Of a stretch of DNA of 64,000 nucleotides, positions 41,718-41,838 are shown piece by piece. The DNA comes from Escherichia coli (GTDB taxonomy: Bacteria; Pseudomonadota; Gammaproteobacteria; Enterobacterales; Enterobacteriaceae): assembly GCF_045037415.1 (NCBI RefSeq), contig NZ_CP173438.1; one strand, 5' to 3'. Both the position numbers and the translations under genes were made by a program. Below the pieces are notes generated by a model. It did no database searches. It was given only the letters and a program-made list of their open reading frames with translations, and was not told the DNA's origin. Every line of letters begins with the position of its first letter. Position 1 is the first letter of the stretch.

Positions 41718-41838
41718 TAATTTCAGTATTTTCAGAAGGATAATTAATCCTTCTCCGTGCACGAACGGTCCCCTCGCCCCTCTGGGGTTAGGGGAACCCG
41801 TCGGCACAGGTTTGTACAACGTAACAGTACAATATTAA

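Follow-up and report, generated by a model that had tools for sequence, protein, structure and literature searches.

Two GC-rich imperfect palindromes, one downstream of tldD (site 1) and one downstream of nanA (site 2), raise the question of what they are and what they do at the ends of these genes. A preliminary description of the window (the whole 64,000-nt stretch of Escherichia coli DNA analysed here) had proposed that the two are related and may belong to a small dispersed element family acting as terminators or RNA stability elements. Site 1 reads GGTCCCCTCGCCCCTCTGGGGTTAGGGGAACCC (41767-41799) and site 2 reads TTCCCCTCGCTCGCCCCTACCGGGTGAGGGGAA (57928-57960). The string first quoted for site 2 was exact, that for site 1 was one base short of its span. 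Site 1 begins 50 nt past the stop codon of tldD (41717), and 40 nt separate its end from the aaeR stop (41839, minus strand), while the site 2 hairpin starts 5 nt past the nanA stop (57922) and lies 70 nt ahead of the nanT start (58031). Both sites are intergenic and the RefSeq annotation has nothing at either place. The regions around both sites were 100% identical to strain SK1144 and were found in nearly all of 5,426 complete genomes. The features of both loci are as in Table 1. Between the tldD stop and site 1, an AT-rich perfect 8-bp palindrome, AGAAGGAT-AATTA-ATCCTTCT (41734-41754), was also observed; no T-run follows it and it is polymorphic among strains.

Table 1. Features of the two sites and of the neighbouring genes, in window coordinates
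Feature	Position	Strand	Basis
Site 1, whole BoxC element with family flanks GTGCACGAACGGTC ... GGAACCCGTCGGCAC and 12-nt internal deletion	41757..41807	+	Strain alignment, flanks, published tables
Site 1 C-block CCCCTCGCCCC, hairpin 5' arm	41770..41780	+	
Site 1 remaining G-block GGGGTTAGGGG, hairpin 3' arm	41784..41794	+	Strain alignment
Site 2, 14-bp hairpin in the nanA-nanT spacer	57927..57961	+	Fold, allele pairing, same-slot BoxC
Site 2 5' arm TTTCCCCTCGCTCG	57927-57940	+	
Site 2 loop CCCCTAC	Between arms 57927-57940 and 57948-57961	+	
Site 2 3' arm CGGGTGAGGGGAAA	57948-57961	+	
tldD, gene upstream of site 1	40272..41717	+	
aaeR, convergent with tldD; site 1 between both stop codons	41839..42768	-	
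nanA, gene upstream of site 2	57029..57922	+	
nanT, next gene in the nan operon; ATG 58031 gives the annotated 1,491-nt gene	58031..59521	+	

Local alignment of site 1 with the rest of the window on both strands showed that its top match was site 2, with 20/24 identical bases over CTCGCCCCTnnnGGGTnAGGGGAA and a score of 14 against 10 for the next place. None of 200 windows simulated with a first-order Markov model reached this score (maximum 13.5), and the relatedness first claimed for the two palindromes was thereby borne out. The 12-mer GGGTKAGGGGAA with at most one mismatch occurred twice in the window against 0.4 expected, a count that was equalled in 5/100 shuffles. A hidden Markov model of the 23 published cores of the family described below, run over the window with nhmmer, ranked the sites first and second with non-significant E-values of 0.13 and 4.5. 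The Rfam covariance models produced no hits for site 1 and only chance-level hits for site 2 (E at least 1.9, far under the gathering scores). When the TCGC duplication of site 2 is removed, site 2 becomes CCCCTCGCCCCT-ACC-GGGTGAGGGG against CCCCTCGCCCCT-CTG-GGGTTAGGGG for site 1, which, as read from the two sequences, is the same architecture. A chance likeness of two unrelated GC-rich hairpins would be made easier by the shortness of the elements and by their complementary arms, which halve the independent information, and would agree with the non-significant profile E-values and the marginal 12-mer test. This explanation is nevertheless highly improbable, given that site 2 tops the matches to site 1 at a score unmatched in the simulations, that site 1 is provably a BoxC locus and that related genera carry BoxC in the slot of site 2, as described below.

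Folding of the plus strand with flanks produced strong RNA hairpins at both sites, with -34.8 kcal/mol (z -3.6) for site 1 and -36.2 kcal/mol (z -6.8) for site 2. The window allele of site 1 folds into a hairpin of approximately -35 kcal/mol on either strand, and site 2 folds much more strongly on the plus (sense) strand than on the minus strand (-19.1 kcal/mol) because of G-U pairs.

The palindromes are real and their family is already known, having been described three times under different names. BoxC, the PIT (potential intrastrand triplex) element and TMECO are the same dispersed intergenic repeat of E. coli and its relatives, described by Bachellier, Gilson and Hofnung in the 1990s, by Hoyne et al. 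2000 and by Holder et al. 2015 (PMC4666352). The name BoxC was also recovered in PMC2267715 with a length of 56 bp, and with this older definition 22 copies were found against 32 reported. The published TMECO consensus is CCCTCNCCC-N3-6-GGGNGAGGG-N3-GGGNGAGGG, and for K-12 the list of strict copies has 23 entries (Holder et al. 2015, PMC4666352). In a full element, a C-rich block CCCTCNCCC is thus joined by two G-rich blocks GGGNGAGGG, with short conserved flanks on the outside; its G-rich half is effectively a short GGGNNA run made up of the tandem hexamers GGGAGA, GGGTTA and GGGTGA followed by GGGG. Nine further K-12 copies that were fetched have the flanks ACGGTC and GGAA(C/A) in common outside the published 36-nt core, in a pattern of approximately ...GYGCAC..ACGGTC (core) GGAAC/A..., which is consistent with the 56-bp length of BoxC. 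Four of the nine lie between convergent genes (tauD/hemB, frlR/yhfS, zntA/tusA and yjdP/phnP), and others of the nine lie just 3' of a gene (adk, pstA and gntP).

A search with a 61-nt query of the full form showed matches in 5,425 of the 5,426 E. coli genomes, with 2-35 matching places in each and a median of 19. The preliminary description had staked its family on further copies in the genome and on conservation across strains; both exist, and the small dispersed family therefore stands, while the name BoxC and the truncated state of the two copies had been missed. The Holder consensus itself had no match anywhere in the window, even when reduced to the C-block and one G-block without the third block. 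Both window copies are truncated derivatives that fall outside the family consensus. Their membership rests on orthology and not on score, because the profile is non-significant and the shortened copies are too short.

For site 1 this orthology is direct. TMECO no. 14 is placed at MG1655 3,390,494-3,390,529 in Table 1 of Holder et al. 2015 (PMC4666352), and Supplementary Table S2 sets it between aaeR and tldD, 44 nt from the former and 53 nt from the latter. Inspection of MG1655 showed that the sequence is there, between the ends of aaeR (3,390,449) and tldD (3,390,583). Alignment of strains showed that the tldD-aaeR spacer of O157:H7 and HeN100 carries GGTC-CCCTCGCCCCTTTGGGGAGAGGGTTAGGGTGAGGGG-AACC inside the same flanks as the window. 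The full element CCCTCGCCCCTTTGGGG(A/T)GAGGGTTAGGGTGAGGGG lies within identical flanks in O157, HeN100 and K-12, and at this orthologous locus all three match the published consensus. In the window the flanks GTGCACGAACGGTC and GGAACCCGTCGGCAC are intact, with ACGGTC and GGAAC as in the nine other K-12 copies. Site 1 occupies the position of no. 14 with intact flanks and is therefore a catalogued BoxC locus with an internal deletion, that is, the orthologue of TMECO no. 14.

Four forms of the element were present among the sampled strains. The full form measures 38 nt between the flanks and has the G part GGGGAGA-GGGTTA-GGGTGA-GGGG; compared to it, the spacer is 6 nt shorter in AR13438 and 12 nt shorter in the window. 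The 6-nt losses were of two kinds, one of the GGGAGA unit (AR13438, Ecol_316 and KSC9) and the other of the GGGTGA unit (strain 100117). The window and AVS0747 have the 12-nt loss, and the window allele thereby lacks two hexamers and the third (triplex) block. A total of 550 of the 5,426 complete genomes had the exact window allele. The full-length 116-nt query was matched at 95% identity or more in approximately 2,050 genomes and the remainder fell in lower identity bands, in which the sampled rows were 110 or 104 nt long. That the full form would be ancestral at site 1 is argued only from the family consensus.

Mutated or partly deleted TMECOs were reported as the commonest change between strains, and replication slippage was suggested as the cause (Holder et al. 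2015, PMC4666352). Since whole units were lost in at least two independent kinds, slippage fits site 1 too, and we infer that the two GGGNNA hexamers were most likely lost in this way. The remainder is a C-block paired with a single G-block, an ordinary hairpin without a triplex strand or a four-run G-quadruplex motif. In NZ_LT903847.1, a Tn5-type insertion with the ends CTGTCTCTTGATCAGATCT and TGTGTATAAGAGACAG was observed inside the G-block of the tldD-aaeR BoxC remnant. A natural IS event in BoxC was considered for it and rejected; the genome is that of an engineered EPEC derivative, and the insertion is therefore an artefact of strain construction.

On another reading, the sites would act as DNA, adopting a non-B form (intrastrand triplex, H-DNA or G-quadruplex) and making the genome locally unstable, as was put forward for full TMECO elements. 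In vitro, a single strand of the family folds into a stable triplex, and between strains TMECO loci vary more than control loci (Holder et al. 2015, PMC4666352), and site 1 itself is polymorphic in length. However, a triplex of this type needs three blocks and the sequence of each window allele has a single G-block left, so that both the third strand and a four-run G4 motif are absent. In addition, published in vivo DMS footprinting gave no support for a triplex even for the full element, and site 2 is stable, with an identical sequence in 4,417 of the 5,426 genomes and no less than 95% identity in the 991 others that matched. An instability role for the window copies is accordingly regarded as extremely unlikely.

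For site 2 the evidence came from its slot. The nanA-nanT spacers of 80 Enterobacterales species were compared, and the same short hairpin was found in every sampled species of Escherichia (E. albertii, E. whittamii and unnamed species). None of the sampled Escherichia genomes had a full BoxC at nanA-nanT. An inverted pair of full BoxC elements occupies the slot in Pseudocitrobacter faecalis and Enterobacter sp. kpr-6, five BoxC copies are present in the 403-nt spacer of Pseudocitrobacter vendiensis, and Kluyvera carries a single copy that is short of one hexamer. An Escherichia-type nanT leader was common to all of these BoxC-bearing spacers of Pseudocitrobacter, Enterobacter sp. kpr-6 and Kluyvera. 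Salmonella, Citrobacter and most Enterobacter had REP/BIME sequences in the slot instead, and unrelated hairpins were found elsewhere. Of the flanks of site 2, GGAAA on the 3' side fits the family and GTTTC on the 5' side is unlike the ACGGTC of the family. Site 2 was absent from the published TMECO lists examined, and a search of the literature returned no paper on a nanA-nanT stem-loop.

The full pairs and the reduced copy in the same slot of related genera are compatible with a descent of site 2 from BoxC but are no proof of it. The link is indirect, and we infer that site 2 is most likely a BoxC remnant. Judged by the sequences compared, the remnant is probably an old one that was fixed before the Escherichia species diverged. 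It is possible that BoxC entered the nanA-nanT slot of the other genera independently. Site 2 itself may descend from one element whose middle block was lost or from an inverted pair that collapsed, the latter corresponding to the 'palindrome effect' of Holder et al. 2015 (PMC4666352). Overall, a slot that is filled by BoxC, REP/BIME or other hairpins depending on the genus hints that a stem-loop is tolerated or favoured there.

A separate hairpin, GTGGGC-ATC-GCCCAC, was observed in the nanT leader at 58001-58015, 3-4 nt upstream of the Shine-Dalgarno sequence GGGAGA. It is kept in many Enterobacterales with this nanT leader, and across 13 distinct sequences two of its six pairs showed compensatory changes. 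It may serve in the translation or processing of nanT.

The first function that had been suggested was termination. As Rho-independent terminators or attenuators, acting in both directions for the convergent tldD and aaeR, the sites would be expected to look in part as they do, each being a strong GC-rich stem that directly follows a stop codon. A position between convergent genes or just past the 3' end of a gene is likewise seen for several more K-12 BoxC copies. However, neither stem is followed by a T-run on either strand and the terminator scan was empty at the sites. The promoter scan also produced nothing at either site. Earlier experiments, as cited by Holder et al. 2015 (PMC4666352), found PIT elements to be without promoter or terminator activity. 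Furthermore, transcription of nanT must pass site 2, as reasoned from its position in the operon.

RNA 3' ends were taken from K-12, where site 1 is in the full form and site 2 does not differ from that of the window. The preliminary description had suggested looking for 3'-end accumulation, and the curated K-12 Term-seq table, from three media, did not show it: no 3' end falls within 100-200 nt of either site, in MG1655 3,390,400-3,390,599 or 3,372,600-3,372,699 (Adams et al. 2021). The nan operon was probably uninduced in these media and the result is therefore weak evidence for site 2. On the tldD strand, a Rho termination region is placed at MG1655 3,390,148(-), approximately 350 nt past the element, and coverage downstream of tldD dropped from 148 to 26 without the Rho inhibitor BCM and was fully restored with it (231 upstream and 243 downstream; Adams et al. 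2021). Termination there thus depends on Rho, and since coverage is kept under BCM, transcription without Rho runs through the tldD element. Other BoxC copies showed a similar picture in the tables of Adams et al. 2021, with no 3' end directly after those following tauD, adk and zntA. Downstream of adk, a 3' end is placed 61 nt past the BoxC, and the zntA-tusA BoxC is followed on the tusA strand, approximately 730 nt further on, by a Rho termination region. We think that neither hairpin is a transcription terminator, and the suggested terminator role, which lacks a U-tract, a scan hit, activity in the published tests and a mapped 3' end, is hardly tenable. Finally, a strong K-12 RNA 3' end is given in the Term-seq table at MG1655 3,373,531 (minus strand; approximately 57074 in the window), 45 nt into the coding sequence of nanA, and premature termination or processing where the nan operon begins may be its source.

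The second suggested function was RNA stability, and the hairpins may be protectors of mRNA 3' ends, a role that may coexist with BoxC ancestry. Transcripts would end at Rho or be cut by an endonuclease downstream and then be trimmed back by PNPase or RNase II to the GC-rich stem, by which tldD mRNA would be stabilised and the nanA segment of the nan operon would become steadier than nanT. Both stems are very stable and U-less on the sense strand, and at site 2 the G-U pairs give the sense strand its stronger fold. On the sense strand, wobble pairing accommodates all four variable positions of the site 2 stem, which is 100% paired in eight distinct Escherichia alleles. Rho-dependent transcripts have been found to end at U-less stem-loops with rut sites just downstream (Dar and Sorek 2018), and the Rho region downstream of tldD and the REP/BIME or other hairpins in the nanA-nanT slot of other genera would also fit. 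However, the Term-seq tables lack a 3' end at either site and directly after the BoxC copies behind tauD, adk and zntA. Moreover, the site 2 stem showed zero compensatory double changes and was conserved no better than its flanks, while the length of site 1 varies freely among strains. Only one-sided wobble changes occur in the site 2 stem and selection on its structure is therefore not proven. Protection is thus considered rather unlikely. At most, the hairpins are possibly a passive barrier to 3'-to-5' exonucleases in the tldD and nanA mRNAs, more so at site 2, and it is no less likely that they persist neutrally as repeat debris.

A more specific proposal is that BoxC decays predictably, hexamer by hexamer, to hairpins and that the nanA-nanT fossil was kept across Escherichia to separate the mRNA stability or stoichiometry of nanA and nanT, with the G-U pairs making it strand-specific. 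This would be the first function for any BoxC-derived sequence if true and is quite improbable. A study of operon decay has the nan operon only as an entry in its list.

Overall, both sites are very probably decayed copies of BoxC, site 1 as an allele that lost two hexamers and site 2 as an older product, and neither of them a terminator. The discovery value is small, as a published table already contains the tldD-aaeR copy. RefSeq annotates nothing at such places and truncated BoxC copies will therefore go on being rediscovered. Across the 5,426 genomes the tldD-aaeR spacer provides a clean allele series that comprises the full form, both kinds of 6-nt loss and the 12-nt loss. It shows G-rich hexamers being lost unit by unit, which fits the instability reported for TMECO elements. 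The worth of the result is modest and lies in annotation and natural history.

Among known systems, intrinsic terminators have in common with the sites a GC-rich stem-loop downstream of a gene; unlike them, the sites are without a U-tract, and the published PIT tests were negative. The stems at Rho-dependent ends (Dar and Sorek 2018) are, like the sites, stable and U-less after a stop codon, with a Rho region downstream in the case of tldD, but in the K-12 tables examined no RNA 3' end is mapped to the present hairpins. REP/BIME sequences are also short GC-rich intergenic palindromes that often lie at gene 3' ends, and they occupy the same nanA-nanT slot in Salmonella, Citrobacter and Enterobacter. 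REPs stabilise upstream mRNA. The sites are unrelated to them in sequence and do not have the GCCGGATG / CATCCGGC core. The element cited for contrast in the preliminary description is present at about 40190-40226, between yhdP and tldD, with the reverse complement TGCCGGATGCGGCGTGAACGCCCTGTCCGGCCTACG, and we take it to be a REP. Inspection by eye agreed that the sites are not REP-like, as no core was in common with this element or with the REPs of the Salmonella and Citrobacter spacers. For BoxC, we know of no RAYT-type transposase and of no protein binding. The window copies differ from BoxC/PIT/TMECO elements in being without one or two GGGNGA units, in failing the consensus and in having no three-block triplex, and site 2 differs further in its 4-nt TCGC duplication and its non-family 5' flank. 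As to what is shared with this family, site 1 lies at the no. 14 locus with the same C-block, flanks and intergenic position, and site 2 agrees with it in C-block, terminal G-block and GGAAA flank and lies in the slot that holds full copies in related genera.
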